Source: Hormoscilla sp.
GTDB lineage: Bacteria > Cyanobacteriota > Cyanobacteriia > Cyanobacteriales > Desertifilaceae
NCBI GenBank assembly: GCA_051439505.1
Contig: JBFRWI010000048.1
Coordinates: 1 to 32,412 of the forward strand
Direction of reading: 5' to 3'
Length of the DNA stretch: 32,412 nucleotides
The notes under the pieces are model-generated. The model ran no database searches and had not been told where the DNA came from. It saw nothing but the letters and a program-made list of their open reading frames with translations. Position 1 is the first letter of the stretch, and each line of letters begins with the position of its first letter. Below, piece by piece: positions 6,381-31,271 of the stretch. Position numbers and translations under genes: made by a program.

Positions 6381-6593
<213 letters not shown>

Positions 6594-6601
6594 GGGGAAT
6601 C

Positions 6602-6724
6602 ATGGATCGCAATTCCAGTAATCCGAATAAGCAGCCAGTAGAGTTAAACCGGACTTCACTTTACTTGGGTATGCTGTTAATTTTTGTTCTCGGGATTCTG
6701 TTTTCCAGTTATTTCTTCAACTAA
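6602..6724 (+). CDS. psbL: Photosystem II protein L
   Basis: [34 protein letters not shown]. Confidence 0.98.
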
Positions 6725-6762
6725 CTGGAGAAGGTCGTGTAATAAGTCAGGAGGAAAAAGCT

Positions 6763-6882
6763 GTGTCTGGAGGCGGAAAAATCCCTCTGTGGATTGTAGC
6801 AACAATAGCCGGTACAGGGGTACTGGTGGTTGTGGGTCTGTTCTTCTATGGTGCCTACGTCGGTATAGGTTCCTCTATGTAA
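6763..6882 (+). CDS. psbJ: Photosystem II protein J (not in the ORF track)
   Basis: Hand translation from [48 protein letters not shown] ribosome-binding site. Confidence 0.96.
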
Positions 6883-6900
6883 GGGTATAGATCCACGCTC

Positions 6901-6938
6901 AACTAAAAGACCGCCTAGAAATGGGCGGTCTTTTAGTT
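6901..6938. terminator. Bidirectional intrinsic terminator between convergent psbJ and cysH
   Basis: Perfect 15-bp inverted repeat aactaaaagaccgcc / ggcggtcttttagtt with A/T-rich outer arms. Confidence 0.85.
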
Positions 6939-6944
6939 TGACAA

Positions 6945-7760
6945 TCATAATGTACTGGAGTTGAGGCTTTCTGCTTCACCGGGGGTCTGGGGCAGGTGCA
7001 GGCCGCATTCTTGCTTGAGTCCGCGAAAACGGGTGTCCCGATCGCTGGCGTCAGCGAAAGTGAGGGGACGACTGGAATGCCAGTCACCTACGGTGACGTA
7101 ACCCTGGTTGAAGAAGGGATGATAGGGGAGGTTGTGGCTAGTCAGGTATTGATATATGTCTCTAGAGTTCCATTTGAGAATGGGCAATACCTTATATCGA
7201 CCTGATTGTAGGTTGACGAAGCCCAAGGTTTTGCGGTGGTCTGTTTGATCTGCCCGCAGTCCTGCTAGGGATGCTGTGGCCTTCAGTTCCTTTAAGGCCC
7301 GTTGCATGGGTTCTACTTTGCGGATCTGGTCGTAGCGGTTGAATGCTTCCACGTCGTTCTGTTCCCAGAGGCGGCCATATAAGGCTTCCATCCGTGCTGG
7401 AGAAATGTCAGACTGATAGACTTTCAGGTTTAGCTGTAGCCGTTGAGTCAATTGATCGGCAAATCTATAGGTCTCTGGTGGTAGGTAGCCAGTATCAATC
7501 CAAATTACGGGAATATCGGGCACGACGCTAGTGACCATATGTAGCATGACCGCAGACTGGATGCCGAAGCTGCTACTCATTACTAAGCCTTCCCCGAAGG
7601 TCTGGGCCCCCCACTCGACGATCTCTGTGGCCTTGGCCTCCGCTAGTCCCTGGTTTGCGGCTTCCAGATCTAACTGGGGTTTGGATGTATCCCATCGCTG
7701 TGTCCCGATCGGGTTCTTTTGCTGGCGAGATCCGTTGCGATCTAAATGCAGTTGCTGCAT
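6945..7760 (-). CDS. cysH: Phosphoadenylyl-sulfate (PAPS) reductase
   Basis: [35 protein letters not shown]-terminal ECGLH; no Fe-S CC...CxxC motif. Confidence 0.93.
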
Positions 7761-7883
7761 AGTTCTCCTTATTTTTATTACTGTTACATGTAATGGTAAA
7801 TTTTACAGTCCTTTAAGTGATGGCTCTTGGGATTTTACGATTAATTTGGGATTTACCTGCAACAGAATTAGCTGCTAGCCTTA

Positions 7884-8332
7884 CCCCACAGCCCCGCACC
7901 CTCAAGGGTGCGGCTACATTACCAAGCCCGCCTGCGCGGGCTGAAGATCCTGTAAGTTCCCCCCACAGCCCCGCACCCTCAAGGGGGGTGTGGTCAAAAC
8001 CCGTTGATCGTTCGGGCGGCCCTCCCAGTCACCGGATCCCCCCAAACCCCCCTTAAAAAGGGGGGCTTCCGGAGCCCCCCCTTTTGGAAGGGGGGGTTTG
8101 GGGGGGATCCTCTCCAACTACTTTTGACCACACCCCCTCAAGGGTGCGGCTACATTACCAAGCCCGCCTGCGCGGGCTGAAGATCCTGTAAGTTCCCCCC
8201 GCAGTCCCGCACCCTCAAGGGTGCGGCTACATTACCAAGCCCGCCTGCGCGGGCTGAAGATCCTGTAAGTTCCCCCCGCAGCCCCGCACCCTCAAGGGTG
8301 CGGCTACATTACCAAGCCCGCCTGCGCGGGCT
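7884..8332. repeat. Four tandem 77-bp REP-like double-hairpin units; the second is interrupted by a MITE
   Basis: Unit gccccgcaccctcaagggtgcggctacattaccaagcccgcctgcgcgggctgaagatcctgtaagttcccccc(a/g)ca starts at 7891, 7968, 8204, 8281; reads GTAG-hairpin on the minus strand. Confidence 0.92.
7986..8135 (+). mobile_element. 150-bp MITE with 14-bp terminal inverted repeats and 9-bp target-site duplication
   Basis: GGGTGTGGTCAAAA (7986-7999) / TTTTGACCACACCC (8122-8135); CCTCAAGGG duplicated at 7977-7985 and 8136-8144; uninterrupted sister units show the empty site. Confidence 0.9.
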
Positions 8333-8376
8333 AGATTACTTGCATTGAGATGATCCCCATTCTTTCTCCCACCTGA

Positions 8377-8916
8377 CTACTCCCTGAAATCTTTGACAAA
8401 ACCATTCTCAGCAGGGGCATTACCCAAGTTGACATCCGGCTGAGAATCTGCCGCCGGGTTTTGGATAGAGATTTCTGGGGGTAGCGGGATAGTTATTTGT
8501 AGGAAGGCATCAATTTTTATTTGATTGTTATCAAAACTCATATTAGTTATATTAACCACGCTATTTCCTGGGGAACCATCACTGACTGGTAATTTAGCAG
8601 GGGACTGAGTTTGATATCCAGCATCATCAAGCCATTCAGTAATATTTCTCCAGTTTTCTATCTTTTCACCACTTTTGTCCACCAGACTTTTAACGTACTT
8701 ATATATGGTGGCGCAGAGATCCGTTTCCACGCCCTTGACATTTTTGTTCAGCCTTTCAGCAATTTTTGTCGGACTACAGCCACAAAGCAGCCCCCGCAGG
8801 TGCAGCTTCTCAACCGGTGTCAGTCGCTTGCCCTTAGCGGAGGCCAAGTCAGTGTAGAGGGTTTCCAAGTCCCAGTGCTGTGCGGCCTGGGCAAATTGCT
8901 CGTCAGTAGATGTCAT
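8377..8916 (-). CDS. Cyanobacterial helix-turn-helix domain protein, putative regulator
   Basis: LTPVEKLHLRGLLCGCSPTKIAERLNKNVKGVETDL resembles a LuxR/sigma-region-4-like HTH; divergent from the 9483-11646 operon. Confidence 0.75.
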   Translation of the reverse strand: MTSTDEQFAQAAQHWDLETLYTDLASAKGKRLTPVEKLHLRGLLCGCSPTKIAERLNKNVKGVETDLCATIYKYVKSLVDKSGEKIENWRNITEWLDDAGYQTQSPAKLPVSDGSPGNSVVNITNMSFDNNQIKIDAFLQITIPLPPEISIQNPAADSQPDVNLGNAPAENGFVKDFRE

Positions 8917-9447
8917 AGCCGGTCTCTTCCAAATTACTGATAGGATCCTAACACAATTCCTGATACATACCCGGAGATTACTATATAAAGCTAGCTTATG
9001 ATAAGCAATGTAGCAGTTGACAGCGGTGCGAGGCTACAGGGAAAGAGGGCGAGAGAGTGTCTAAGCTCAAGCAGCCGGTGATGGAAATGGCCATCCGGAC
9101 GTTACCTCAACCAAAAAACTGTCCAAGTGCCGGTCTCATGCCGCCAAACTGCTCGTAAGTAGATGCAATAGCTGGTAGAATCCTAAATTACTGATGTAAT
9201 CCTAATACTATTCCTGATACACACCCGTAAATTACTAAGTGAAGCTAGCTTAAGATAAGTAGGAGAGGAGTTTACAGCGGTGCGATGCTACAGGTCAAAA
9301 GGGCGAGAGAGTCTAAGCCCAAGCAGCCAGCGACTAGCACGATCCGGACGTTAGCCAAGTCGGCGCAGTCTAAATTACATCAGTAATTCTAACATAATTA
9401 CTGATGTACACACTTGTATAACTAAGAAAAGCTAGCTTAAGAATAGG
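8869..9447 (+). promoter_or_regulatory. Triplicated promoter/operator module (two diverged copies of about 253 bp plus a third partial copy)
   Basis: AAGCTAGCTT palindrome at 8988, 9242, 9429, each running into TATGAT/TAAGAT/TAAGAA; AATTACTGAT-like boxes upstream; perfect 13-bp inverted repeat at 9376-9408. Confidence 0.6.
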
Positions 9448-9482
9448 TAAAACAGGAATTGTTTGCTGAGAGGAGAGGAACT

Positions 9483-10030
9483 ATGGTGGAAGAAATAATT
9501 ATTTATATTCTGTTGGGAAGTGTTGTAACAGGTGTCATATCGGGATTAATAACGAGTACTATGATTTTTAAAATTCTATCGATGATTAAACCGAAAGTTG
9601 AAATATCGGAAGATATATCTAAAGACAAAGATAAAGACGATGGCAGAACTTTGTACAGAATTAAAGTTATAAATAGAACAAAAGCAGATATTGTTAATAT
9701 TAGGGCTCAGCTTCATCTTTTGAAAAAAGATCAGGTAAAGGGAGGGGAGATCCTAAGAAATAAAAGACTTCAATTAAAACAATCAGATCTTCTTTTTATT
9801 GAAAAATTCGATGTTAGAGATAAGAATGCAAGTTATGCATATAGGTTTATAACTTATGAAAATTTAGAAGAAGAGTGGGACGCTGCAAGGCAATTTGTGA
9901 GATTTCGTATTATATGTACACATCCATTTACAGGAGTTCTGCAATTTTTTCCCAAGATTACGAACGTTATAATATAATGGAGGGTAATTTTAGTAAAGGT
10001 GACACATTTGAAATAACAAGGGAAGGCTGA
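9483..10030 (+). pseudogene. Single-TM protein, paralog of 10191-10745, frameshifted at a T6 run (real or sequencing error)
   Basis: Adding one T at 9945-9950 restores FFSQDYERYNIMEGNFSKGDTFEITREG*, colinear with the paralog FFEKEYDYYNIKNGNFCKGDSFEITQGG*; as written it stops at 9977. Confidence 0.75.
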
Positions 10031-10190
10031 CGAATATGAAAACCGTCATTAAGATAGGTAGCAATGCCCATTAGGACATTACCTAACAATGAGGACAGTA
10101 AGTCGTACTTAGCAGTCAACAAGCAGAACAACTCGAAGAGAATTGCTACAGAATGTTTAATAATGATTTTTGGCTTAGAGGAGAGGAACT

Positions 10191-10745
10191 ATGGTGGAAG
10201 AAATAATTATTTATATTTTGGGAAGGGTTCTAACCGGTGTCATATCGGGATTAATAACGAGTACTTTGATTTACCAAATTGTATCTAGGTTTAAACCGAA
10301 CGTTGAAATATCGCCGGAAATATCTAAAGACCAAGAGGGAGATGGCAGGGTTCTGTACAGAATTAAAGTAATAAATAGGACAAAAGCAGATATTGTTAAT
10401 ATTAGGGCTCAACTTCATCTATTGAAGAGAGGGGGGCAAGATGTGCAGGTAAAAGGAGGGCTGGTTGTAAAAAATCAAAAACTTGAATTAAAACAATCAG
10501 ATCCTCTTTTTATTGAAAAATATAGTGCAAAAGATCCCAAGGCAAATTATGCATATCGGTTTATAACTTATGAAGAATTATCCGAAAAGTGGGATAGGGA
10601 CACTCAAAGGTTGAGATTTCGTATTATATGTACACATGCATTCACAGGAGTTACGAAATTTTTCGAGAAAGAGTACGATTATTATAATATAAAAAATGGT
10701 AATTTTTGTAAAGGTGACTCATTTGAAATAACGCAAGGAGGCTGA
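10191..10745 (+). CDS. Hypothetical protein with N-terminal TM helix and beta-rich domain, possibly like the Kir-channel cytoplasmic domain
   Basis: GAGGA ribosome-binding site, hydrophobic N-terminal segment, intact 184 aa, stop codon 1 nt before the next ATG. Confidence 0.8.
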   Translation: MVEEIIIYILGRVLTGVISGLITSTLIYQIVSRFKPNVEISPEISKDQEGDGRVLYRIKVINRTKADIVNIRAQLHLLKRGGQDVQVKGGLVVKNQKLELKQSDPLFIEKYSAKDPKANYAYRFITYEELSEKWDRDTQRLRFRIICTHAFTGVTKFFEKEYDYYNIKNGNFCKGDSFEITQGG

Positions 10746-10746
10746 A

Positions 10747-11646
10747 ATGAAAATCGTCATTCTAGGTGCGAAGTTTAGAGAAAGTGATGAGCAGCTATAT
10801 AAAGCGGCTTGCGATCGTAATCATGTTGTCACTTATATTCATCCAAACAATATAAGTTTTTCGGTGGTAGGAAATGAAATTGACTTAGGTTATTTGTCTA
10901 CAGTCGATAGAGTTTTGATTAGGAGAACTGTGGAACAAAGTAGAAAAATATCTACTATAGCAACGGCTCTTAAAGCTTTACAAATTCCATGTATAGAGCG
11001 TCCTTATCACTATACATCTTCATCGGCATCAAAGATAGGTGCTATTTTGCATCGTGCAACAAAAGTTAAAGTTCCTTCTTCTTGGGCTATATGGGATATG
11101 GATCAATTGGATGATTTATTATCGAAAAATTTGGATCTGCCAGTCTTATTCAAGCCAGATCTGGGACATGGTGGGAAAGGAATTGAAAGATTAAGTAGCG
11201 TCGCTGAAATTAAAGAGTTTGCAAAATCCTATTTTGAGAAACAAACAGAACTACCATTTCTCGTGCAAAAAGAAGTTCAAAGAAAAAGAGAGTATAGAGT
11301 TCTTATGCTCAATGGAAAACCAATTGGTACAGTTCTTAAATGTGCAAGCAAAGATAGTATTGTGGCTAATGCAGAAGCAGGAAATTCATTTGTAGATGCT
11401 CGTGAAGCTCCAGAGAATATACCTTTAGAAGAAATTTTGAGTGTTGAAGATTGTGCAGTAAAAGCTACAAACCTTGACAAGCTGATTTTTGCTGGAGTAG
11501 ATGTACTCGTTTCTGAAAATGACGAAAGTTATATCCTTGAGTGTAATCGAAATCCACAATTTCTAGAAACTCAGCGGGCACTTCCTAATGTTGACATTGC
11601 CAGCAAGGTTATAGAATGCTTGGAAAATCCTTCCGAATGGATTTAA
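10747..11646 (+). CDS. RimK/LysX-family ATP-grasp ligase
   Basis: PVLFKPDLGHGGKGI, FLVQKEV, EYRVLML, FAGVDVL, YILECNRNP ATP-grasp motifs; about 300 aa. Confidence 0.85.
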   Translation: MKIVILGAKFRESDEQLYKAACDRNHVVTYIHPNNISFSVVGNEIDLGYLSTVDRVLIRRTVEQSRKISTIATALKALQIPCIERPYHYTSSSASKIGAILHRATKVKVPSSWAIWDMDQLDDLLSKNLDLPVLFKPDLGHGGKGIERLSSVAEIKEFAKSYFEKQTELPFLVQKEVQRKREYRVLMLNGKPIGTVLKCASKDSIVANAEAGNSFVDAREAPENIPLEEILSVEDCAVKATNLDKLIFAGVDVLVSENDESYILECNRNPQFLETQRALPNVDIASKVIECLENPSEWI

Positions 11647-11799
11647 AAAATTGTCGTTGCACAATTAGGGTTATATTTGAATAATTACAGTGCGATCGCC
11701 CTCCGGTTGGGTTGAAGAATGAAATCCACCGGAGGGCTGTCGTGCGTCCAAAACTTCCTTGCAGTAGCAGAATAGGCGATCGCCCCAAAAGCCCGCTGC

Positions 11800-11828
11800 T
11801 TGACAAGTAGCCGTGAAGAGGGTAAAAT
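11800..11828 (+). promoter_or_regulatory. Sigma70-type promoter upstream of the DUF2442 gene
   Basis: TTGACA (11800-11805), 17-nt spacer, TAAAAT (11823-11828). Confidence 0.6.
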
Positions 11829-11894
11829 TACATTTGAACTGCCCTCGCATCGGGGGGCGATCGCACTCTCCCGAAGAGTCTTAATACCGACTCA

Positions 11895-11914
11895 GTGGGC
11901 GGTGCCCACCCTAC
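11895..11914 (-). repeat. GTAG-type REP palindrome
   Basis: Minus strand reads GTAGGGTGGGCACCGCCCAC, same family as 6296-6316 and 15786-15867. Confidence 0.8.
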
Positions 11915-11928
11915 GAACTTCTTCAAGA

Positions 11929-12234
11929 ATGATTGATATCCTAAAAATTCCCCAAGCACAGCAAGTGGTAATTACCGATGATTCGTTAACAGTAAATTTG
12001 TCCGACGATCGCATCATTTCCGTGCCCTTAGCATGGTATCCTCGACTCTTGCATGGATCCCAGGACGATCGCAACAATTGGCGATTAATAGGTAGCAAAG
12101 AGGGCATACACTGGCCCGATCTGGATGAAGATATTAGCATCAAGAATATCATTCTCCGTCAACCGTCAGGAGAAAGTCAGAAGTCCCTCAAACGTTGGTT
12201 GGAATTGAGAACTGGGACCATTCTCGATCCATGA
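11929..12234 (+). CDS. DUF2442-domain protein (antitoxin-like)
   Basis: LSDDRIISVPLAWYPRLLHG...WRLIG...GIHWPDLDEDISI signature. Confidence 0.85.
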   Translation: MIDILKIPQAQQVVITDDSLTVNLSDDRIISVPLAWYPRLLHGSQDDRNNWRLIGSKEGIHWPDLDEDISIKNIILRQPSGESQKSLKRWLELRTGTILDP

Positions 12235-12700: not shown

Positions 12701-12997
12701 ATGGCCACAACTCTAAGAAAGTTAGTCCAAGAAAAAAGAGAAGAAATTCTGAACATCGCCGCCCAGCACCAAGCCGATAATGTCCGCATTTTTGGCTCCG
12801 TGGCCCGGGGTGAAGACCGCGAAGACAGCGATGTAGATTTTCTCGTGGACATGGAACCGGGACACAGTCTCTTAGATCGAATTGGTTTGATGCAGGATTT
12901 AGAAGACCTTTTGGGTCGAAAAGTGGACGTGGCAACTGTAAAAGTTTTGCGGGATTTTTGCCGCGATCGCATTCTATCGGAGGCGGTACACCTGTGA
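12701..12997 (+). CDS. Minimal nucleotidyltransferase (MNT) antitoxin
   Basis: IFGSVARGEDREDSDVDFLVD...LEDLLGRKVDV; 98 aa. Confidence 0.9.
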   Translation: MATTLRKLVQEKREEILNIAAQHQADNVRIFGSVARGEDREDSDVDFLVDMEPGHSLLDRIGLMQDLEDLLGRKVDVATVKVLRDFCRDRILSEAVHL

Positions 12998-14462: not shown

Positions 14463-14622
14463 AGGCCCAGTATAATCCCTGTTTTGAGAGAAAATCCATC
14501 GCCAATTGCGACAGCTTTACAGAATCTTCATATTATCGCCTACACAACAGCCCGGAAATAGCGCATAACTAAAATAGACCGTTTGCCTTCGGTGGCACTT
14601 GATGTCAAACTCACTCTACCCT

Positions 14623-15762
14623 ATGACCACTACCCTAACCACCATTCCTTTCGTTGACCTCTCCCAACAACATCAGCCCCTGCAAAAGCAGATCGATGCA
14701 GCAGTCCAGGATGTTTTGCGACGGGGAGATTTTATTCTCGGTAAAGATTTAGCAGAGTTTGAAGCCGCCTTTGCCCTCAAGTCCGGGGTTTCCCATGGCA
14801 TTGGCACTGGTTGTGGCACGGATGCGATCGCCCTCGGATTGCAAGCCTGTGGCATCGGTGCTGGCTGCGAAGTGATTTTACCCACCAATACCTTTATCGC
14901 CACTTTAATTGGCGTCATCCGCGCCGGTGCCAAGCCCATTTTAGTCGATTGCGACCCCGCAACAGCCTTGATCGACCTGGAAGCTGCGGCCAAAGCCATT
15001 ACGGCCAAAACTAAGGCGATCGTCCCAGTACATCTTTACGGTCAGATGGTCTCGCCCCCCCAGTTGCTAGACTTTGCCAGTACCTACAACCTGCTGATTT
15101 TTGAGGATGCGGCTCAGGCTCACTTGGCCCAACACTCAGGGTATACTGCGGGTGGAGTGGGTACGGCAGCAGCCTATAGCTTCTATCCTAGCAAAAATCT
15201 GGGATCCTTTGGGGATGCTGGTATGGTTTTGACTAACAATGCCGAAGTGGCCCAAAAGGTGCGATCGCTCCGCAACTACGGGGCCCCGCGCAAATATTAT
15301 CATACCGAATCCGGTATCAACAGTCGCCTGGATAACTTACAAGCCGCCATCCTCAATGTTAAACTTCCCTATCTGGAGCAGTGGAACCAATCTCGCAGGG
15401 AAGCAGCAGCCATTTACGACGCCCAACTAGAACCATTGCAGGATCTAGGCATTCTTCCCATTACCAATAACAGCGGTGCAGGTCACACTTATCATTTATA
15501 TGTAATCCGCCTGCTGTCCACTTGCCCCATAGACCGGGATATCCTAGCTGAGAAACTGAACGCCCAAGCCATTCAAACTGGCATCCATTATCCCATTCCC
15601 TGTCATCTACAACCAGCCTATAAATATTTAGGCTATCATGCTGGTGACTTTCCCCAGGCCGAAACTCTCTGCCAGCAGATTCTCTCCTTACCCATGTATC
15701 CCGGTCTGACTGCCGAACAAATCGATCGCATAGTCGCTACGATTAAATCGGCGGTCAATTGA
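14623..15762 (+). CDS. DegT/DnrJ/EryC1/StrS family PLP-dependent sugar aminotransferase
   Basis: IPFVDL, PVHLYGQ, EDAAQAH, SFYPSKNLG (PLP lysine), GINSRLD, LSLPMYP. Confidence 0.95.
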   Translation: MTTTLTTIPFVDLSQQHQPLQKQIDAAVQDVLRRGDFILGKDLAEFEAAFALKSGVSHGIGTGCGTDAIALGLQACGIGAGCEVILPTNTFIATLIGVIRAGAKPILVDCDPATALIDLEAAAKAITAKTKAIVPVHLYGQMVSPPQLLDFASTYNLLIFEDAAQAHLAQHSGYTAGGVGTAAAYSFYPSKNLGSFGDAGMVLTNNAEVAQKVRSLRNYGAPRKYYHTESGINSRLDNLQAAILNVKLPYLEQWNQSRREAAAIYDAQLEPLQDLGILPITNNSGAGHTYHLYVIRLLSTCPIDRDILAEKLNAQAIQTGIHYPIPCHLQPAYKYLGYHAGDFPQAETLCQQILSLPMYPGLTAEQIDRIVATIKSAVN

Positions 15763-15785
15763 TAGTGCTTAGTGGTCAGTTGATA

Positions 15786-15867
15786 GACAACAGACATGGT
15801 GGGCAATGCCCACCCTACCAAATGACAACAGACATGGTGGGCAATGCCCACCCTACCAAATGACAAC
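15786..15867. repeat. Two exact tandem 38-bp units, each carrying a GTAG-type REP
   Basis: gacaacagacatggtgggcaatgcccaccctaccaaat x2 plus gacaac. Confidence 0.9.
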
Positions 15868-16774
15868 TGTTAGAAAAATACCCCCAACCTTCGAGAAATA
15901 TATGTTTCCAGGGGCGATCGCCCTCCTGTTGGCGGCGATCTACGCTCCCCTGATGGTACATTGGTACGATGGCTGGCTGAATAAAAGTATCAGCATCGAA
16001 CATGAATATTTCAGCCACGGCCTCATCGGACTGCCCTTTGCGGCCTACATCATCTGGAGTAACAGACGCCAATGGAATAGTCTCCCCGATCGGGCCCATC
16101 CTGTGGGCGTTTTCTTGCTCACATTGGGGGCAGTATTCTACCTCAGCGGCCTGCCAGAACTGGTGAATTTATCCTTTCCGGCCATGCTCACGGGAATTTG
16201 CTTGTGGATCAAAGGCATCCCCGGTTTCCGACTGCAAGCATTTTCCTTGCTGCTGATATTTCTGGCAACGCCAACGGAAATTCCCTATTTAATTGAACCA
16301 TACATCCTGCCCCTACAAAGCTTCATTTCCGGTACGGCAAGCTTAATTTTATCTATACTGGGTTTAGATGTCACGGTTCAGGGCATTTACATGTTTGTGG
16401 GCGGCAGAGTAGTAGAAGTAGCCCCCCACTGTGCAGGGCTGAAAATGTTATTTACTAGCCTTTATGTCGCCTTAATGCTGCTTTATTGGACCGGGGCGAT
16501 CGCGTCGCGCACTAAAACCATTTCCATATTAGCGGGATCGGTGGTCATTAGTGTGGCCGCCAATATAGTCCGCAATGCCTTACTCACATACTTTCACGGG
16601 ACTGGCAAAGATGGAGTGTTTAAGTGGCTGCACGAAAGCTGGGGTGGAGATATGTATTCTGCTGGTATGCTAGGTTTAGTGGTGCTTCTACTCATTTGGA
16701 TCGAAAAAACTTTCCCAGAGGACATCCCCGATGAAACCATTGAGCCAGTTACCAATGACCAATCCAGCGACTGA
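15860..16774 (+). CDS. crtB: Cyanoexosortase B
   Basis: Multi-TM exosortase: WYDGWLNKSISIEHEYFSHG, VAPHCAGL (Cys), NIVRN (Arg), WLHESWGG (His). The symbol refers to cyanoexosortase, not phytoene synthase. Confidence 0.88.
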   Translation: MTTVRKIPPTFEKYMFPGAIALLLAAIYAPLMVHWYDGWLNKSISIEHEYFSHGLIGLPFAAYIIWSNRRQWNSLPDRAHPVGVFLLTLGAVFYLSGLPELVNLSFPAMLTGICLWIKGIPGFRLQAFSLLLIFLATPTEIPYLIEPYILPLQSFISGTASLILSILGLDVTVQGIYMFVGGRVVEVAPHCAGLKMLFTSLYVALMLLYWTGAIASRTKTISILAGSVVISVAANIVRNALLTYFHGTGKDGVFKWLHESWGGDMYSAGMLGLVVLLLIWIEKTFPEDIPDETIEPVTNDQSSD

Positions 16775-17483
16775 GGCCCGATCGAGGTCCGGAGCCAAAA
16801 TCAGTTTACTACTACTGCTGCTGGCCTTGATGGCCATAGGCGCAGTTCCCGGTTACCTAAGCGGTAAATGGTCTTGGGTAAAACCGCCCCGAGTCAAAAC
16901 TCTCAAGCAGTTGCGAGAGATCCGCAAGCAAGGTCTCAACCTGCCCGGTTGGGAAACCCTCGTTCAGCAGGTCGTTACCATTGGCGGTCACAAATGGTCA
17001 TATCAGCAAATCCAGTCGTCGGAGTCCCAAAAAGTTCTGCTATTGCTACTCAATCAAAACGATCATGTGGATCAACCTCGGGTAGAGTGGGTAGATATTA
17101 ATGGGCATCAGCAGCAGATGTCTTCCGACTGGAAAACTGATTCTTACCAAACTAAGCAGTTTACTATCACGCCAACAGACCCTGGGGAGACGGTTAAAGT
17201 GCGATCGCGTTTCTTTCGGGGCTGGAATCAGCGACAGACCTATGCTATACTACAATGGTATGCCAGACCAGATGGGGGCTCGACCGGACCGACCAGTTGG
17301 TTTTGGGCAGATAGAATGGCCATGGTCAAGGGCGATCGCTCCCCGTGGGTGGCAGTTTGTCTGTTGATTCCCATTGAACCCCTGGGGGATATCGAACAAA
17401 CTTGGCCCCAGGCAAAAGAACTGGCCGAAACTGTCCAGACAACATTGATGGCAGGTCCATTCAAATACAAAACTAAAGATTAG
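16755..17483 (+). CDS. Cyanoexosortase B system-associated protein
   Basis: N-terminal TM, GAVPGYLSGKWSW, FFRGWNQRQTYAILQWYA, WFWAD; overlaps the exosortase 3' end. Confidence 0.82.
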   Translation: MTNPATEARSRSGAKISLLLLLLALMAIGAVPGYLSGKWSWVKPPRVKTLKQLREIRKQGLNLPGWETLVQQVVTIGGHKWSYQQIQSSESQKVLLLLLNQNDHVDQPRVEWVDINGHQQQMSSDWKTDSYQTKQFTITPTDPGETVKVRSRFFRGWNQRQTYAILQWYARPDGGSTGPTSWFWADRMAMVKGDRSPWVAVCLLIPIEPLGDIEQTWPQAKELAETVQTTLMAGPFKYKTKD

Positions 17484-17498
17484 TATAGACCAGTTATC

Positions 17499-18677
17499 AT
17501 GTACCAGGTCCACCAAAGCAAAAATAGGATAGCCCTGTCTCTGGCGACGCTGCATGCTGCTGCATCAGTCTTGTCTTACACGGGTATTTTCTGGACTCTC
17601 AATAGGGTCAAGGCAAGTCTAGCATGGTCTGGTAGCGTTAGAAATGCCGAAGAAATCATCCCAGATGACCGACTGGCTATCCAAACCCAAGAGTTATTCC
17701 CAGAGAATTTAACACCTGAGACTCAAGCAGAAGTTGATGAATTTGATTTCTACCGCTTGGGTTCCGGGGACGCCATTAATGTGATCGTCCCCCGCTTTCA
17801 AGACCTCAGCTTTCAAGCCCAAATTGACCTGCAAGGCAATATAACATTCCCTTTGCTGGGTAAGGTTTCCCTAGAAGGGCTGACCTTAGAAGAAGCTCAA
17901 GAGAGAATTCGTTTTGGCCTGAATCGATTTATCATTGACCCCACGGTGATCTTGACATTGGTTAATAGGCGACCCGTCCAAGTTACGATTACTGGGGAAG
18001 TCGTCAGACAGGGATTCTATCCCCTAGGTCAACCTTCCCTATCTACCGCTTTGCTGATCTCCGGTGGCACGACCCAGCAAGCAGACCTGCGAAGGGTACT
18101 GGTACGTCGGACTTTAATCGATGGTTCTGTAATTGAGAAAGAGATTGACCTGTTTAGCCCTCTGAAAAACTTCGATCCCATACCAGATCTACGCTTGGAA
18201 AATGGAGACGTGGTCATCGTGCCTCAACTGTCACCGGACGATCGCGATTACGATCGGGCATTGATCGCTACTACTAATCTAGCTGAACCACAGATCACTC
18301 TCAAGCTTTTGAGATACCCTGGTGGCATTGGGAATCTCGCCTTGCCAAACGGCAGTACCTTTGTCGATGCCTTGGCCGCGATCGGGGCCAATCCTGACAT
18401 ATCCGACATCCGCAACATTGCCTTGATCCGGTTCGATCCAGAAGAGGGTAGAACAGTTACCTACATCTTAGACGGTAAAAGCGCTCTGCTGGGTGACACA
18501 GATCAAGACCTGCTCCTGCGCAATAACGATGTCATTGCCGTAGGTCGAACCCTGATTTCTAGGATTAGTTTCGCCCTGACGACGATCACCCAACCATTCC
18601 GAGATATTCTGGGATTTCTGTTGTTCTTCAATCAATTTGATAATGTATTCAACGACGATCGGAGAAGAAGAAACTGA
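17499..18677 (+). CDS. Polysaccharide export protein, Wza/SLBB family
   Basis: YRLGSGDAI, GNITFPLLG, VTITGEVVRQG, LENGDVVIVP. Confidence 0.9.
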   Translation: MYQVHQSKNRIALSLATLHAAASVLSYTGIFWTLNRVKASLAWSGSVRNAEEIIPDDRLAIQTQELFPENLTPETQAEVDEFDFYRLGSGDAINVIVPRFQDLSFQAQIDLQGNITFPLLGKVSLEGLTLEEAQERIRFGLNRFIIDPTVILTLVNRRPVQVTITGEVVRQGFYPLGQPSLSTALLISGGTTQQADLRRVLVRRTLIDGSVIEKEIDLFSPLKNFDPIPDLRLENGDVVIVPQLSPDDRDYDRALIATTNLAEPQITLKLLRYPGGIGNLALPNGSTFVDALAAIGANPDISDIRNIALIRFDPEEGRTVTYILDGKSALLGDTDQDLLLRNNDVIAVGRTLISRISFALTTITQPFRDILGFLLFFNQFDNVFNDDRRRRN

Positions 18678-18733
18678 TCGGTATTAAAAGAGTTTAACCA
18701 AATAAAAAATGAATTACAGAGGAAAAGGGGACT

Positions 18734-20845
18734 ATGACTTCACCCATTGTTAAGCGTTATCTGATTGCCTTAAATAAATACTGGTTTTTGATTCCAGTGG
18801 GAATATTGGTAGGTGTAGCTGGGGGCTTTGTTTACGATCTGTTTTTGCAATCGACTACCCAACAAACTGAATACACGATTACAGGAGTGCTCAGGTACAC
18901 TCGTCCTCCCGTGACATTTTCTGAGATCGGTAATGTGATTCAAGATCGGGGACAGAAACTGACTCGGGAAGAACTGCTGGTTCCTAATGTGCTGGAGTCA
19001 GTGGCATCACAGGATGGAGTGAAAACCCCGGTCAAGGATATTTTGAAAGCGACAAATGTGAGACAGGATAGAAAAGATACCTCAAAGCTGAGAGTTATCT
19101 ATAAAACGACCGATGAGGAGGAAGGGGAGATAATCACGACGGCATTAATGGAGGAAATGGTAGAACGAAGTCGCCAAATCAATACAACCCTTTGGCGATT
19201 GGTGATTGACGAAATTAACAAACGCTTGCCAACAGCGCTGGGGGAAATCAGGGCTGCCGAGCAAGATTTGGAACAGTTTATCCGACGCGAACAAACGGCT
19301 CTCTTAGCGATCGAAGCTGGGCAATTGCCAGGGTCAATTCTGGGCAGTCAACAGCAGCAACGACAGATTCAACTGCAGTTAGAGGGGATTGAGGCCCAAA
19401 TGCAAAGCCTGTCCGAGCAACTGGGGCTGACACCGGAACAAGCCTATGCTTCCGCAGCCCTCAGTGCCGACCCGATTATTGCCGATCTGCGGGCCCGACT
19501 CTATCAAACTGAAACTCAAATACAGCAGTATAGTCAGGATTTGCGACCCGATCACCCCATAATGGTGCAGCTTGCTAGGGAACTGGAATCTTCTGAGCAA
19601 TTGCTAGAGCAGCGAGCAGTTGAGGTGATTGGCGGCCATGGCCAAGGAACGCCACTGGTCAGTGGGGCGATTCGCCAAGACAGCAATCTGGATCCAGCAC
19701 GGCAACAACTGGCTCAGACTCTAGTCAGTTTACAAACACAGCGGGAATCGCTGCAACGGCAATTGCAGGTGGCGATCGAGCGAGAGCAGGAACTCAGACA
19801 GCGCTATGAAACTTTGCCCAACAAGCGACTGGAACAATCAAGGTTGCAGCAACAGCTAGAGTTGAAAAAGAGTTTTTACAATGCCATGCAGGCGAAATTG
19901 ATTGATGCTCAGACCGCAGAGGCGGAGACAGTCAGCAGTTTGGGCATTGCCGAACTAGCAAGAGTGACCAACAAAGCAGAACCTAGTCCTCCCTTACCCA
20001 TGTGGCTCCTGTTGCCAGCAGGAGGTGCCGCAGGAGCCGTTCTGGGCGGCGCGTTGATTTTCCTGTTGGGATCCCTCGGTACCCTGTTGCAAACAATGGA
20101 AGATATCCGAGATTTCCTGCGGGAACGGGAGGTAGAAATGCTGGGGGTTTTGCCTTTTGTAGATCTGTACGATCCCGATATCGGCGAGCAACCAATTGTG
20201 GTGGCCGCCATTTCTCACTATCTGGAATTTTACGAGCGCTTTCGTAGTAACCTACGTCAAGCTGAAGGGAAACCGAAAATTATCTTGTTGACCAGTACGG
20301 TGAGAAATGAGGGCAAGACTGTTAGTGCTTATAATCTGGCGATCGCCTCTGCCCGTGCTGGCAAGCGCACTCTCCTGATCGAAGCCGATTTGCGATCGCC
20401 CTCTTTTGCCAAAGCCCTCAAATTAGATGAACACCCCTCCAATGCTGAAGAACCGCTACATTACTACTCTCAGATATCCGAATGTATCCGCATGGTGCCG
20501 GATGTAGAGAATCTTTACTTTGTCCGCAGTTTTGGCCCCTACTCCCATGCCGCAGCTTTGATTGAATCTGCAGAAATGCGACAGCTATTAGAAGATGCCC
20601 GGGGGCGTTTTGATTTTGTTGTCATCGATAGTTCTGCCCTCAGTATCTGTAATGATGCCCTCTTGCTGGAACCCTATACTGATGGCATTGTTCTCGTGAC
20701 CCGACCTCGTTATACTGGCTCTAGTGTCTTGGCTGAGTCGATCGATCTCCTGGCCGACTCTGAAGAATTCCGCTTTTTAGGAGCCATCATTAACGGAGAG
20801 TATATGCCTCTGCACTCTCTACCACGCATCCAGGCTCCAGCTTGA
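18734..20845 (+). CDS. Wzc/GumC-like polysaccharide co-polymerase with tyrosine-kinase domain
   Basis: Two TM segments around a coiled coil; Walker A TSTVRNEGKT, LLIEADLR, FVVIDS. Confidence 0.88.
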   Translation: MTSPIVKRYLIALNKYWFLIPVGILVGVAGGFVYDLFLQSTTQQTEYTITGVLRYTRPPVTFSEIGNVIQDRGQKLTREELLVPNVLESVASQDGVKTPVKDILKATNVRQDRKDTSKLRVIYKTTDEEEGEIITTALMEEMVERSRQINTTLWRLVIDEINKRLPTALGEIRAAEQDLEQFIRREQTALLAIEAGQLPGSILGSQQQQRQIQLQLEGIEAQMQSLSEQLGLTPEQAYASAALSADPIIADLRARLYQTETQIQQYSQDLRPDHPIMVQLARELESSEQLLEQRAVEVIGGHGQGTPLVSGAIRQDSNLDPARQQLAQTLVSLQTQRESLQRQLQVAIEREQELRQRYETLPNKRLEQSRLQQQLELKKSFYNAMQAKLIDAQTAEAETVSSLGIAELARVTNKAEPSPPLPMWLLLPAGGAAGAVLGGALIFLLGSLGTLLQTMEDIRDFLREREVEMLGVLPFVDLYDPDIGEQPIVVAAISHYLEFYERFRSNLRQAEGKPKIILLTSTVRNEGKTVSAYNLAIASARAGKRTLLIEADLRSPSFAKALKLDEHPSNAEEPLHYYSQISECIRMVPDVENLYFVRSFGPYSHAAALIESAEMRQLLEDARGRFDFVVIDSSALSICNDALLLEPYTDGIVLVTRPRYTGSSVLAESIDLLADSEEFRFLGAIINGEYMPLHSLPRIQAPA

Positions 20846-26249: not shown

Positions 26250-29200
26250 CTACAATCCCAGAGTTTCAGTTTCTGGCAATACGGTCACGGTTACTAGAGC
26301 TGTGGAAGTAGCATTAGCACCGAATGGACCGAAGAAGCCATCACTGATATTGTAGCTGAAGCTGTCCGTGCCTGTAAAGCCAGGGGCTGGGATGTAAATC
26401 AGACTATCGCTGATGGCAGGGTCAAATGGACGACTGTCGTTATTGTCCAGGATGACTTGTCCGCCATTAGCTGTGGTAGTCTCAAACCCAGTAATGACAA
26501 GGCGTGAGAAGAGATCTCCGGGTTCAGAACCGACACCAAAGTCGTTGTCCAGTACGGGAATGTTGACCGCCGTGTTGAGTAGAGTTTCTGCACTGTCGTC
26601 CTCGGCACTCGGGGGTTCTGGGGAGATTTGTATTTCCACTAGGGCCCGATCGGTCAAGTTGCTGTCAGGATCCCGGACAGTGTAGCTGAAACTGTCAAAG
26701 AAGACAAGGAAATCATTCTCGCCCTCGGCAGGTGGAGTATAGATCAGTTCGTCCCCGTCCCGGGCGATCGTCCCCCCATAAAATGTCGTCTCCTCAAAGC
26801 TGTCCAATGCTAGGTTCCCTTCGCCATCAAAGTCGTTGTCCAACACGGGGATGGTGACTGGTTCATTCCCCGAGGTATTGACAAAGTCATTGACAGCAGC
26901 AAACCCTGCTTCTGGTAGCGGATCCACTGTTACTGAAACGAAACCTATCGTCGTATTGTCCTCGGCATCGCTAATAGAGTAGCTGAATTCGTCATACCCG
27001 GTGAAACCTTCAGCAGGGGTGTAAATGAGACTGTCATCGGTTAGGTCATCTGTGCCTTTGTCGTCCCGGGCGATCGCACCTTCAGCAAACTCTGTGGTTG
27101 TCTCAAAGTCGATCAGTTCCACTGGAGAATTATCGACAGTAAAGTCATTGGCCAGGACATCGATGTTAATGGGAAGGTCGGCAAAGGTATAAGCATCATC
27201 AAAATTAGCGAAGGTGGTTAGTATCGGCGCGATACTTACAGATGCAACCCCCGTGTCGGTACTGCCATCGGCATTAGCAATAGTATAGCTGAAGCTGTCA
27301 GAGCCAAAGAACTCGCTATCGAACTCACCCGGTTCGTACACCAGGAAGTCATCGGTCTGGTCGGAGGGGGTGTTGTTCTCAAACCGAGTGACAATACCGC
27401 CATTCTCTGTTTCCCGTTCAAAGGAGATCAGTTCTAATGGTTCATCGTCGATCTCAAAGTCGTTGTCCAACACGCCAACTTTCACGGGTAAACCAGCTAC
27501 GGTTTGGACGAAGTCATCCACAGTCGCAAAGCCTGCTGGTGCTGGTAAAATGTTGACGGAAACTTCTCCCACATCTGTCAACCCCGATGAGTCTGTGATG
27601 GTGTAGTTGAAGTCGTCAAAACCCGTGAAACCAGTTGCAGGTTCATATACTAATAGGTCATCGGTCTGGTCTGAGGGAGTCCCGTTATCCTCCAGACTGA
27701 CTGTTCCTCCAAATGTTGATGTCCCTTCAAGGTCGGTCAGGAAAATGCTGTCCCGATCGAAGTCAAAGGCACTTGACAATACATCAATGGTTACAGGGGC
27801 ATTTTCAAAGGTCTCCCCGAAGGCAAACCCAGCAAAAGGCGGGCTAGGTGCTACCGTTACCCGTACTGTAGCCGTGTCCGTAACCCCATCTGGGTTGCTG
27901 ATGCTGTAGGTAAAACTGTCTGTCCCCGTGAAGCCATCCGCTGGACTGTACAGCAGGTACCCTTGACCGCCTATTGGTGGGAATGGATCTATGATGATAT
28001 CATCTATGGGCTCATCAATTTCTGGGAGGAAGAAACCTTCGAGACTGACTGTACCGCCATTGACTGTGGTTTCGTCAAAGTCTAGGATCTCTAAGGGGTT
28101 GCCATTTACTTCAAAGTCGTTTTCCAGAACGAAGATGCTGGTGGGGTTGTTCTTGATGACTTCGGCATTGTCGTCAGCGGCGAACACTGTACTGTTAGCA
28201 GGTACCACCACTACATTTACTACTGCCGTGCTGCTGGTAGGACTAAAATCATCGATAATGCTGTAAGTGAAGCTGTCCGTTCCCACGAAGTCTGTAGCTG
28301 GGGTGTAGACCAGAAGGTCGTCGGTCAGGTCTTCTGCTGTCCCATTCTCATCGCGAGTGATGGTCCCACCTGCTGCTGTGCTGTCGTCAAAGTCTGTCAG
28401 TTCTGCTGACTGTTGAAAGCTAAAGTCGTTGTCCAGAACGGGGATGTTCGCAGGACTGTTGGCTGTGATAAAGGCGCGATCGTCAGCAGCAAAGACCGTG
28501 GGTAGAAAGGGTGGGGCGATGGTGAAGAAATTTACTACATCTACTACTGCGGTGTCCGTACTGGAACCGTCACTGATGCTGTAGGTGAAGCTGTCCGTGC
28601 TAGAGAATTCCTCACCAGCAGTATAGATCAGAAAGTCATCAGTTAGGTCTTCTGGGGTGTCGTTGTTATTGCGAGTTACGGTCCCGCCCCCTTCTGTGGT
28701 CTCGTCAAAGTCAGTCAGGGCGATCGCATCTCCATTTAAGCTGAAGTCGTTCTCCAGGACAAATATATTGACTTGATTTTCTTCTGGTAAGAAGATGTTA
28801 GTGAAGTCATCTATGGCGACAGCGGACTGACCTTCGGGAAGGACCGTAACAGTGGCAAATGCCGTACTGGTTAAACCCCGATCGTCGCTAATGCTGTAGC
28901 TGAATGCATCCGTACCGATAAACCCATCCGTGGGACTGTAGGTGAGGAAGTCGTCTGTGGGATCTTCTGGAGTACCGTTATCATCCAGGGTGACTGTTCC
29001 GCCTTCGGGTGTCTCTTCAAAGTCTAGGATCTCCCGGCGAATGTCCCGGGGGTCGAACTCGTTTTCCAGAACGAAGATATCCACCGGTTCGTTGAAGAAG
29101 GTGTAGACTTCTTGGTCGAGGATCAGGGGAGGCAGGTCCTGATGGATGCGATCGACTACTATGCTGACAAAGGCTGTATCGGTAATCCCAGAGCCGTCAC

Positions 29201-31271
29201 CAACCCTGTAGCTGAAGCCATCCGTGCCAGTAAAGCCCACTGGTGGAGTATACATCAGAGAACCGTCTTCATCCCGGGTAACAGTTCCGCCATTTTCTGT
29301 AGTCTGGGCAAAATCAATAATTCCCAGACGGTTACCACTTTCGTCGAAGTCGTTATTGAGAGGATCGATGTTGACCGAAATGCCCTGAACAGTTTCCGCG
29401 AAGTCATCGGCGGCGATCGGGGGTGCATTTCCTGCTGGACCGACTTCCACAGTCACGAACCCTGTTGCGGTCTGACCCGATCCATCACCGATACTGTAGC
29501 TGAAGCTGTCCGTACCAAAGAAGCCAAAAGCTGGCAGATAATTCAGAAAGTCATCTGTCAGGTCATTGGGAGTACCGTTATTTTCGAGGGAAACAATACC
29601 GCCATTCCCGGTGACATCCTCAAAGTCGATCAGTTCTACTACGCCATCTGGACCCGAGTCGTTGTCCAGGACAGAGATATTGACGGGAATGTCTGCAAGG
29701 GTAGTGGCGAAGTCATCTTCAGCAATTAGAGGTAAACCAAGTTCTGGGTTTACTATCACCGTTACCGTAGCTGTTTTAATATTCCCCAGGGCGTCGCCAA
29801 TGCTATAGGTGAAGCTGTCTTCTCCAATAAACCCATCTGCCGCAGTATATATCAGCTTGTCATCTGTCAGCCTGGGAGTATCGTTATTGTCCCGAGTGAC
29901 AGTTCCCCCATTCTCTGTCGTCCTCTCAAAGAATATCAGTCCGAAGGAGTCGCCATCTGGGTTAAAGTCATTCTCCAAGACGGCGATCGTCTCACTTTCT
30001 CCTGCTGCAACCGAGGCGCGATCGTCGGTAGCGACAGGTCCTGGTTCGGGTGCTGACTCTACAGTTATATCTACTGTCGCCGTGCTAATGTTTCCCCGTG
30101 CATCGCCAATACTGTAAGTGAAGCTATCGGTTCCTGTGAACCCAGCGGCGGGAGTATATACCAACTTGTCATCCGTCAGTCTGGGAGTATCGTTATTGTC
30201 CCGAGCGATCGTTCCTCCATTCTCTGTCGTCCTCTCAAAAAATATTAGTCCAAAGGCGCGACCTTCTGGGTTAAAGTCATTCTCCAAGACGGCGATCGTC
30301 TCTGACCTGTCTTCCCGTGCGATCGCAGTATCATCGGACGCCACAAGTCCCGTGTCATCTATGGAATTTACCTGCACCGTCACTGAAGCCTCTGCTACAT
30401 TCAAGGCATTACTGATGCTGTAGCTGAAGCTGTCAGTTCCTGTAAATCCCTCTGCTGGTATATACTCTAGTGAGTCATCAAAAGCGTCCGATGGAGTGCC
30501 ATTATCATTCAGAATGACTGTCCCGCCATTTGCTGTCGTCTCCGCAAATGATGCGATCGCGACTTCGGGACCGACACCTATCGTGAAATCATTAGCGAGA
30601 ACATCGATGTCAACAGGAATGTCTTGAGTTGTTTCGGCAAAGTCATCCGTAGCAACGGGGGGTGGTTCTACTGGCAATACCACTTCTACATTCACCGTTG
30701 CTGTCGCCGTAGCCAAGCCATCACTAATAGTATAGATAAAGCTATCCGTGCCGAAGAAGTCAGCAGCCGGCATGTAGGTGAGGAAATCATCGAACGGGTC
30801 ATCGGGAGTATCATTATTGTCGAGGGAAACTGTCCCGCCTGCAATTGTAGTCGCCTCAAAGTCTATAATTGAGAGGATATCACCCTCAAAGTCAAAATCA
30901 TTGTCCAGAACAAATATCGCCGCCGCCGTTCCTGCCATAGTCATGGCAAAGTCATCCAGGGCGATCGGGGGTTCGTTGCCACCACCAATGATAAAATTGT
31001 CCTCACTCAGTTGGTCTGCTGCGACTTCCAACAGTTCGATACTTCCGAAACTGCCAACTAGCAACAAACTATTCGATTGCGATATAATGCTGTCCAGCAA
31101 TTCTTGGGGAGTGACTCCTGCTATCGCACTAACATCGATCCGATCGGACGCGGGGTCAAAGTTAAACACCCTATCTTGGCTGCGATCGCCCGCTGCTATC
31201 ACTATAGTATCGGCTTCATCCGTTAACATTATTACATCATCGAAGCCCGGTAAAAGTTGAAAAGTTGCCAC
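26250..31271 (-). CDS. Large acidic surface protein / adhesin with about 15 tandem Ig/cadherin-like repeats
   Basis: Repeats of about 100 aa: AxDD...IxVLxND...GGTV...LxYxP...FxGTDSFTYxI; N-terminal DRVFNFDPASDRIDVS; GTG start with GGAGA upstream. Confidence 0.9.
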   Translation of the reverse strand: MATFQLLPGFDDVIMLTDEADTIVIAAGDRSQDRVFNFDPASDRIDVSAIAGVTPQELLDSIISQSNSLLLVGSFGSIELLEVAADQLSEDNFIIGGGNEPPIALDDFAMTMAGTAAAIFVLDNDFDFEGDILSIIDFEATTIAGGTVSLDNNDTPDDPFDDFLTYMPAADFFGTDSFIYTISDGLATATATVNVEVVLPVEPPPVATDDFAETTQDIPVDIDVLANDFTIGVGPEVAIASFAETTANGGTVILNDNGTPSDAFDDSLEYIPAEGFTGTDSFSYSISNALNVAEASVTVQVNSIDDTGLVASDDTAIAREDRSETIAVLENDFNPEGRAFGLIFFERTTENGGTIARDNNDTPRLTDDKLVYTPAAGFTGTDSFTYSIGDARGNISTATVDITVESAPEPGPVATDDRASVAAGESETIAVLENDFNPDGDSFGLIFFERTTENGGTVTRDNNDTPRLTDDKLIYTAADGFIGEDSFTYSIGDALGNIKTATVTVIVNPELGLPLIAEDDFATTLADIPVNISVLDNDSGPDGVVELIDFEDVTGNGGIVSLENNGTPNDLTDDFLNYLPAFGFFGTDSFSYSIGDGSGQTATGFVTVEVGPAGNAPPIAADDFAETVQGISVNIDPLNNDFDESGNRLGIIDFAQTTENGGTVTRDEDGSLMYTPPVGFTGTDGFSYRVGDGSGITDTAFVSIVVDRIHQDLPPLILDQEVYTFFNEPVDIFVLENEFDPRDIRREILDFEETPEGGTVTLDDNGTPEDPTDDFLTYSPTDGFIGTDAFSYSISDDRGLTSTAFATVTVLPEGQSAVAIDDFTNIFLPEENQVNIFVLENDFSLNGDAIALTDFDETTEGGGTVTRNNNDTPEDLTDDFLIYTAGEEFSSTDSFTYSISDGSSTDTAVVDVVNFFTIAPPFLPTVFAADDRAFITANSPANIPVLDNDFSFQQSAELTDFDDSTAAGGTITRDENGTAEDLTDDLLVYTPATDFVGTDSFTYSIIDDFSPTSSTAVVNVVVVPANSTVFAADDNAEVIKNNPTSIFVLENDFEVNGNPLEILDFDETTVNGGTVSLEGFFLPEIDEPIDDIIIDPFPPIGGQGYLLYSPADGFTGTDSFTYSISNPDGVTDTATVRVTVAPSPPFAGFAFGETFENAPVTIDVLSSAFDFDRDSIFLTDLEGTSTFGGTVSLEDNGTPSDQTDDLLVYEPATGFTGFDDFNYTITDSSGLTDVGEVSVNILPAPAGFATVDDFVQTVAGLPVKVGVLDNDFEIDDEPLELISFERETENGGIVTRFENNTPSDQTDDFLVYEPGEFDSEFFGSDSFSYTIANADGSTDTGVASVSIAPILTTFANFDDAYTFADLPINIDVLANDFTVDNSPVELIDFETTTEFAEGAIARDDKGTDDLTDDSLIYTPAEGFTGYDEFSYSISDAEDNTTIGFVSVTVDPLPEAGFAAVNDFVNTSGNEPVTIPVLDNDFDGEGNLALDSFEETTFYGGTIARDGDELIYTPPAEGENDFLVFFDSFSYTVRDPDSNLTDRALVEIQISPEPPSAEDDSAETLLNTAVNIPVLDNDFGVGSEPGDLFSRLVITGFETTTANGGQVILDNNDSRPFDPAISDSLIYIPAPGFTGTDSFSYNISDGFFGPFGANATSTALVTVTVLPETETLGL

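Follow-up and report, generated by a model that had tools for sequence, protein, structure and literature searches.

What is encoded by two short, closely spaced membrane-protein genes that abut an ATP-grasp ligase gene, and do the three form a system? The question is raised by a locus in a 32,412-nucleotide (nt) stretch of Hormoscilla sp. DNA (contig JBFRWI010000048.1, all of it analyzed and hereinafter called the window) from a 6.47-Mb cyanobacterial genome. Here, two paralogous genes (copy 1, 9483..10030, and copy 2, 10191..10745, both on the + strand) precede the ligase gene (10747..11646, + strand) and lie divergently from a candidate helix-turn-helix (HTH) regulator gene (8377..8916, - strand). 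A previous sequence-only reading had placed these genes in a new module coupling poreless relatives of inward-rectifier potassium (Kir) channels to a RimK-type ligase; the coordinates it gave for the HTH-like, 184-residue and ATP-grasp open reading frames (ORFs) were verified, as was the 1-nt gap between the stop of copy 2 and the ligase gene. We find that the membrane genes encode a truncated KirBac descendant in which, as modeled, only the M2 helix and the cytoplasmic gating domain are left, and we regard this filterless Kir family, apparently undescribed, as the solid finding of the analysis.

The evidence for this assignment is primarily structural. An AlphaFold2 model of copy 2 built from 143 sequences (95.1 in pLDDT, the predicted local distance difference test) consists of one helix (residues 2–33) followed by a beta domain. 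The matches listed by a Foldseek search with this model are all Kir channels (best KirBac3.1, expectation value [E] 1.5 × 10–8, template-modeling [TM] score 0.60), and an independent wide structure search placed seven Kir chains on top (Z 14.3–10.6), with the next non-Kir structure at 8.9. Copy 2 aligns with residues 105–297 of KirBac3.1 (1xl4) at Z 14.3 (root-mean-square deviation [rmsd] 4.6 over 170 residues) and with the isolated Kir2.1 domain at Z 13.4 (rmsd 3.3, 134 aligned residues). A profile of the family likewise retrieved two full-length KirBac genes (E about 10–6). Because Foldseek, the Z ranking and the family profile all retrieve Kir, copy 2 almost certainly corresponds, as its model predicts, to the inner helix and cytoplasmic domain of a Kir channel, which bears out what had been recognized from the letters alone. 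Traces of the relationship are detectable by sequence comparison: 3 of 143 family members touch the IRK_C model (PF17655), and an Atlas cluster at 0.91 carries IRK_C on 18% of its members. The window protein itself gave no IRK_C match in the Pfam scan; single-sequence searches of Pfam and NCBIfam returned nothing of note and missed the Kir link, and profile searches of PDB sequences reached Kir only at E 0.9–1.8. A match of the protein to EcoRI in the PDB (E 0.049) was discarded once the protein was folded.

The absence of a pore loop or filter was likewise upheld, as a single helix precedes the domain in the model, from which the outer helix, pore helix and selectivity filter are absent. There is no slide helix either, the alignment with KirBac3.1 beginning at its residue 105, and none of 180 family proteins has a G-Y/F-G motif within its first 80 residues. 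The inner helix and cytoplasmic domain superpose on those of KirBac3.1 (1xl4) and KirBac1.1 (2wll) over the whole 184 residues, whereas family members are about 178 residues long against about 310, and the identity to these channels is 8–17%. PMC13488966 counts the slide helix, outer helix, pore helix and selectivity filter among the parts of a Kir channel; because these are missing, the proteins fall outside the Kir channels proper.

The part that is retained resembles Kir channels in having an inner helix with a conserved glycine that leads into the domain: Gly16 is conserved in 73% of the family, position 20 is Ser or Gly in all members, and Ser24 is found in 87%. Gly16 aligns with Gly134 of KirBac1.1, which acts as a hinge. 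A model of four copies scored 0.74 against 0.00 for the best control, which may reflect likeness to solved Kir structures, four being the only copy number tried; 20 of 30 solved pairs and 1 of 23 single chains attained that mark. The four-copy runs agreed in at least 79% of contacts with pLDDT of at least 79, and the modeled inter-subunit contacts involve the conserved small-residue face of the helix together with the beta domain. Since Kir tetramers are solved, passing this mark may show likeness only; with that reservation, the modeling makes a tetramer likely, with a cytoplasmic ring of the Kir type that probably sits above a bundle of four helices whose lining consists of small residues.

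We then surveyed the spread of the family. A word search recovered 25 relatives from outside the window (28–47% identity), and a profile search 741 clusters at E≤10–10 and 1181 at E≤10–3, the weaker of which may include full KirBacs. Among the 180 family proteins (median length 178 residues), 162 have one hydrophobic segment, 12 have two and 6 have none; the second segment is in several of the 12 a signal-like N-terminal extension, and the topology may therefore vary. The family is large and patchily distributed, lacks a Pfam model of its own and, as the Atlas contains unnamed clusters of it, is common yet unannotated. A scan of 401 cyanobacterial genomes found no member besides that of the window genome (one match at E 10–4 was rejected), and 1490 genomes of five other phyla gave three new members and one already known. 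No member was found in the viral contigs, plasmids or phages searched, a viral fold search gave weak beta-sandwich matches only, and 8000 candidates included no longer or fused forms, which is weak evidence. Neither a filterless Kir family nor a Kir-like/ATP-grasp pairing turned up described in our searches of the open-access literature. At the ten other loci examined, the G+C content (GC) of the gene is below that of the locus in 7 of 8 cases, 3 of 10 copies are broken, and 4 of 10 have restriction, transposase or prophage neighbors. These include an Mrr-type restriction nuclease gene (L002), a PADLOC PDC-S02 gene within a type I restriction locus (L049), a neighborhood of NERD, transposase and NYN genes (L006), and a prophage (L050); ordinary genes are neighbors as well. 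Separately, genes for Ion_trans_2 pore-domain proteins adjoin the Kir-like gene at two of the ten loci (L003, 64–615; L049, 4999–5913).

In the window, the Kir-like and ligase genes are horizontally acquired cargo. The region 9460–11650 is AT-rich, as had been claimed, its GC of 0.346 lying under that of all 2837 tiled 2.19-kb windows of the genome (mean 0.481, standard deviation 0.025). The reported lack of HIP1 octamers is also real, extending from 6569 to 11691; as HIP1 is missing from 433 of the 2837 genome windows (15%), its absence over 2.2 kb is weak evidence. The HTH gene has a GC of 0.459 and lies outside the AT-rich cargo. It occurs at the same site in three of four congeners as copies 75–92% identical, together with its promoter and shared flanks; the protein has only weak HTH-family matches, and no Pfam model matches it. 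Being resident and fronting different cargo in the congeners, it is not part of a Kir-ligase module, contrary to the sequence-only reading. The cargo of the same slot consists in one congener (G001) of TerY, PP2C and kinase-OB (STK_OB) genes, that is, a TerY-P triad, in another (G002) of ThiF and JAB genes, and in a third (G004) of a ThiF fragment; like that of the window, it is partly broken. Cargo of these kinds recurs at two of ten HTH loci that are more distant, as vWA-PP2C-kinase (G010) and ThiF-E2-JAB (G006) genes. Genes of the HTH family are divergently arranged with TerY-P triads or ThiF-E2-JAB genes at 5 of the 13 loci viewed (L026–L028, L051 and L052). At the G006 locus (L052, 1269–7921), ThiF, E2-like, JAB, TraG-like ATPase and GUN4-domain genes form one run behind the HTH gene. 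The TerY-P triads and the ubiquitin-like E1-E2-JAB systems share the slot with the window cargo without being homologous to it, and thus inform on the slot only. According to PMC11090510, TerY-P with a kinase-OB fusion is a stand-alone antiphage system. The triad and the ubiquitin-like E1/JAB genes in the congeners' slot strengthen the earlier hint of a link to defense. The HTH protein is probably a regulator of exchangeable defense-type cargo, and its family may represent an undescribed cyanobacterial regulator of such cargo.

The promoter region between the HTH gene and copy 1 (8929..9442) contains three copies of a 73-nt unit, spaced by 254 and 187 nt and 75–82% identical to the middle copy, with short direct and inverted boxes. 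A 10-nt palindrome of this unit recurs in one or two copies in each of three congeners, and the repeats could constitute an operator; a promoter scan was at chance level (12 versus 9.3). The middle duplication of the promoter includes a decayed copy of the start of the HTH gene (9145–9176).

The claim that the two Kir-like proteins are paralogs holds as to their relationship (69% identity over 162 residues, each with one N-terminal hydrophobic segment), though not as to two intact genes. In the window, copy 1 is a 164-residue ORF (9483–9977) interrupted by a one-base frameshift in a T run near 9945–9950, and because of this frameshift the EITREG sequence previously given as its end lies in another frame. 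The site is covered by three of four sequencing runs (X1, X3 and X5; X6 does not reach it). Contigs of X1 (depth 120) and X5 (13.8) have one extra base in the T run that opens the frame of copy 1, whereas that of X3 (depth 4.7), from a possible source sample, is identical to the window; the break is accordingly either an allele or an error shared with X3. The ratio of nonsynonymous to synonymous substitution rates (dN/dS) between the copies is 0.67 over 151 codons (no significance test). The spacer between them (10031..10190) includes a part, 10059–10190, that corresponds to the region upstream of the single Kir-like gene of the diverged strain X5.

This strain, from another study, is the one place outside the window where the pair was seen, at the same site. 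Its 6744-base contig carries the HTH gene, one Kir-like gene and the ligase gene in that order, with nucleotide identities to the window of about 92%, 88% and 94%, respectively; there is a 4-nt overlap between the Kir-like stop and the ligase start, and the Kir-like tail reads on to Ser-Lys-Ile in place of Gly-Gly. As the pair is kept in X5, it is inherited within the lineage, the duplication is strain-specific, and the tails are not conserved. The proposal that C-terminal tails are ligase substrates is thereby undercut, and only 1 of the 180 family proteins ends in Gly-Gly. Nor, seen from the Kir-like side, is the pair conserved: none of the ten other Kir-like loci has an ATP-grasp neighbor, within the DNA covered, by a test in which the Escherichia coli rimK control locus scored 2.4 × 10–9. 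Nine of these loci are informative downstream, one contig ending just past the gene. The ligase subfamily is also missing from seven of these genomes, whose completeness is unknown, and the same stop-start overlap as in X5 joins the Kir-like gene of L002 to its Mrr-type nuclease gene. We therefore treat the ligase as closely co-translated with the Kir-like protein yet an optional partner of it in the window lineage, and their coupling as a lead at the level of that lineage.

The ligase (299 residues) matches the Pfam RimK model with 45 bits and has a fold like LysX, ArgX and RimK (Foldseek E about 10–15, TM 0.53–0.56, with high rmsd and a model from 6 sequences). It scores 87.2 bits with TIGR00768, under the cut-off of 143.4, and its identity to E. 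coli RimK is 23%. We recovered only five close homologs (43–58% identity). Likely catalytic Lys, Arg, Asp, Glu and Asn residues, shared with RimK, LysX and ArgX, occupy RimK-equivalent places and are invariant in the six subfamily members. The arginine of the F-R-S-N motif of RimK, which has a substrate role, is replaced in all six, and the subfamily has its own signature (RRT, SK, ECNRNP). On the evidence of the TIGR00768 score, the identity and this arginine, it looks unlike an ordinary S6-modifying RimK and is, judged by sequence, a divergent non-RimK member of the RimK/LysX fold belonging to a rare subfamily. That subfamily was not found in 40 relatives, one distant match grouping elsewhere in the tree. 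Ten metagenome loci fetched by motifs shared with the ligase yielded relatives at 26–42% identity; among the loci scanned, those of L029, L030, L031 and L033 sit among TIR, SLOG or ThsB genes. The best-scoring relatives for which there is context are TIR-fused enzymes in Thoeris-like islands (E 3 × 10–34, far above RimK). As observations on these loci, L029 (2538–7041) and L034 encode ligase-TIR fusions, and ATP-grasp ligases joined to TIR or CAP12-TIR domains occur across L029–L035, in islands that also contain SLOG-TIR and ThsB genes. At L036 (160–2097), a MATCAP carboxypeptidase gene directly follows a ligase gene of the same motif group, and the two may act as writer and eraser. The TIR-fused ligases are preceded by a gene that is not Kir-like (probability 0.2%, with a 3-sequence profile), and we found no open-access paper on ATP-grasp ligases fused to TIR.

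Taken together, we favor a reading, to which we give a probability of about 0.45, in which the Kir-like protein acts at the membrane as a gated effector (or sensor) that lacks a filter and is carried as defense-type cargo, with the ligase optional; the figures for this reading and for its rivals overlap in part. The family spreads as a lone accessory gene and is lodged here as cargo in a variable slot, fronted by the HTH gene, where relatives keep defense-type systems. The four-helix bundle, having no filter, would be a closed, non-selective pore; binding of a ligand or phage product by the cytoplasmic ring would open it and depolarize the infected cell. The ligase might tune the gate through an amino-acid adduct that it makes or attaches, it might supply or remove the gating signal, or it might be a second cargo gene acting alone. 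Within this reading, a role of the Kir-like protein in defense or conflict is slightly favored, its action as a pore is plausible at somewhat under even odds, and a coupling to the ligase appears doubtful. A type III CRISPR membrane effector, Csx23, offers a working analogy: as described in PMC11014256, its tetramers combine an N-terminal membrane portion with a cytoplasmic domain that binds a ligand and perturbs the membrane portion, though its cytoplasmic fold is a different one, each tetramer has eight helices in the membrane, and its ligand, cA4, is known. No CRISPR or cyclase gene was found among the 27 window proteins scanned. Several points weigh against the favored reading. Neither the Kir-like genes nor the ligase matched PADLOC 2.0 (2023) at E up to 1; six of the ten other Kir-like loci are without defense neighbors, and eight of the ten more distant HTH loci without recognizable defense cargo in 1.5-kb flanks. 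The TIR-fused ligases were fetched by a shared motif, and their relation to the window enzyme is not settled by the tree. The tetramer score may stem from resemblance to Kir tetramers of solved structure, and ion conduction does not follow from a four-helix bundle.

The tight junction could instead point to a dedicated two-gene system, in which a filterless Kir protein is the constant partner of the ligase subfamily, whose members would control its gate through a peptide or amino-acid signal or by modifying the channel. The 1-nt gap in the window, the 4-nt overlap in X5 and the arrival of two low-GC genes in one slot agree with this; we nevertheless think it improbable, given ten other loci without an ATP-grasp neighbor (nine with a visible downstream gene), seven genomes without the ligase subfamily, a comparable overlap with a restriction nuclease gene in L002 and an unconserved C-terminal tail. 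Equally improbable in our estimate is the converse, that two independent accessory genes are chance neighbors in a decaying island, with a recent duplication losing one copy. The frameshift of copy 1, the dN/dS value, the partly broken cargo of congeners and the absence of the pairing at other loci are what would be expected; yet the pair and its tight junction are kept across about 6–12% nucleotide divergence, in the run of greatest depth (X1) the frame of copy 1 is open, and the ligase retains its invariant catalytic-type residues. A variant that gives the ligase more weight, and to which we attach a low probability, is a new signaling defense in which infection leads the TIR-associated subfamily to make an amino-acid or peptide messenger; the filterless Kir tetramer would sense this through its Kir cytoplasmic domain and open a non-selective pore. 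The Kir-derived effector would be connected to other sensors elsewhere, and here be under an HTH protein that is an undescribed cyanobacterial regulator.

Two further alternatives deny the protein a pore of its own. It may be a non-conducting, membrane-anchored sensor or scaffold, with the Kir domain binding a ligand or partner and the helix merely an anchor. The lack of a filter and outer helix fits this, as does the second hydrophobic segment of 12 of the 180 members, by which topology may vary; we hold it unlikely, since the conserved small-residue helix face forms the modeled inter-subunit contacts and so exceeds what an anchor needs. Less probable still is a split channel or modulator, the filterless subunit joining a separate pore-domain protein or the host KirBac so as to alter potassium flux or the osmotic response. 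In its favor, two of ten loci have Ion_trans_2 genes as neighbors of the family gene, the host has a full KirBac gene on another contig, and, according to PMC12239564, RloB and RloC (a membrane protein and an ATP-grasp enzyme) of Pseudomonas act in osmotic stress. Nonetheless, no Ion_trans_2 match occurs among the 27 window proteins, an IRK_C gene is present in only one of nine other carrier genomes (which are incomplete), and the pore-domain neighbor in L003 carries its own helix after the pore motif. RloBC resembles the window pair as a stress-linked operon of a membrane protein and a RimK-like ATP-grasp enzyme; as described there, however, RloB, a fusion with 7 helices, contains an inactive transglutaminase, and its operon includes a retropepsin (PMC12239564), and the window has neither a retropepsin nor such a transglutaminase partner.

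The surroundings of the slot contain further features. On its right flank lie a DUF2442 gene (11800..12234, + strand), also present in the congener G001, and an MntA-type nucleotidyltransferase antitoxin gene (12701..12997, + strand; 48.9 bits, under the 60-bit cut-off), so that the adjoining toxin-antitoxin-type genes noticed earlier are real. Past these remnants, DegT aminotransferase, exosortase, polysaccharide export and Wzc-like genes (14599–20845) make up an ordinary exopolysaccharide locus, and the 1673-residue product of a gene further on (26250–31271, - strand) contains about 15 repeats of bacterial Ig or cadherin-like type. The region that separates cysH from the HTH gene has, at 7860–8345, a cluster of repeats spaced by 77 nt and a long GC hairpin; these repeats have copies elsewhere in the genome and are likely dispersed cyanobacterial repeats and not CRISPR. 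A search against Rfam gave only repeat-derived matches, all under the cut-off.

Kir channels combine a filter-bearing pore with a cytoplasmic gate, and this widespread family indicates that the gating module stays usable once the filter is gone. As small proteins rich in soluble domain, the filterless Kir proteins provide a test object for gating at the bundle crossing and the G-loop. Beyond the family itself, the analysis of the slot points to an HTH regulator that marks cyanobacterial defense cargo, and to TIR-fused ATP-grasp ligases. If the Kir-like proteins do protect against phages, a Kir-derived class would join the membrane effectors of bacterial immunity.

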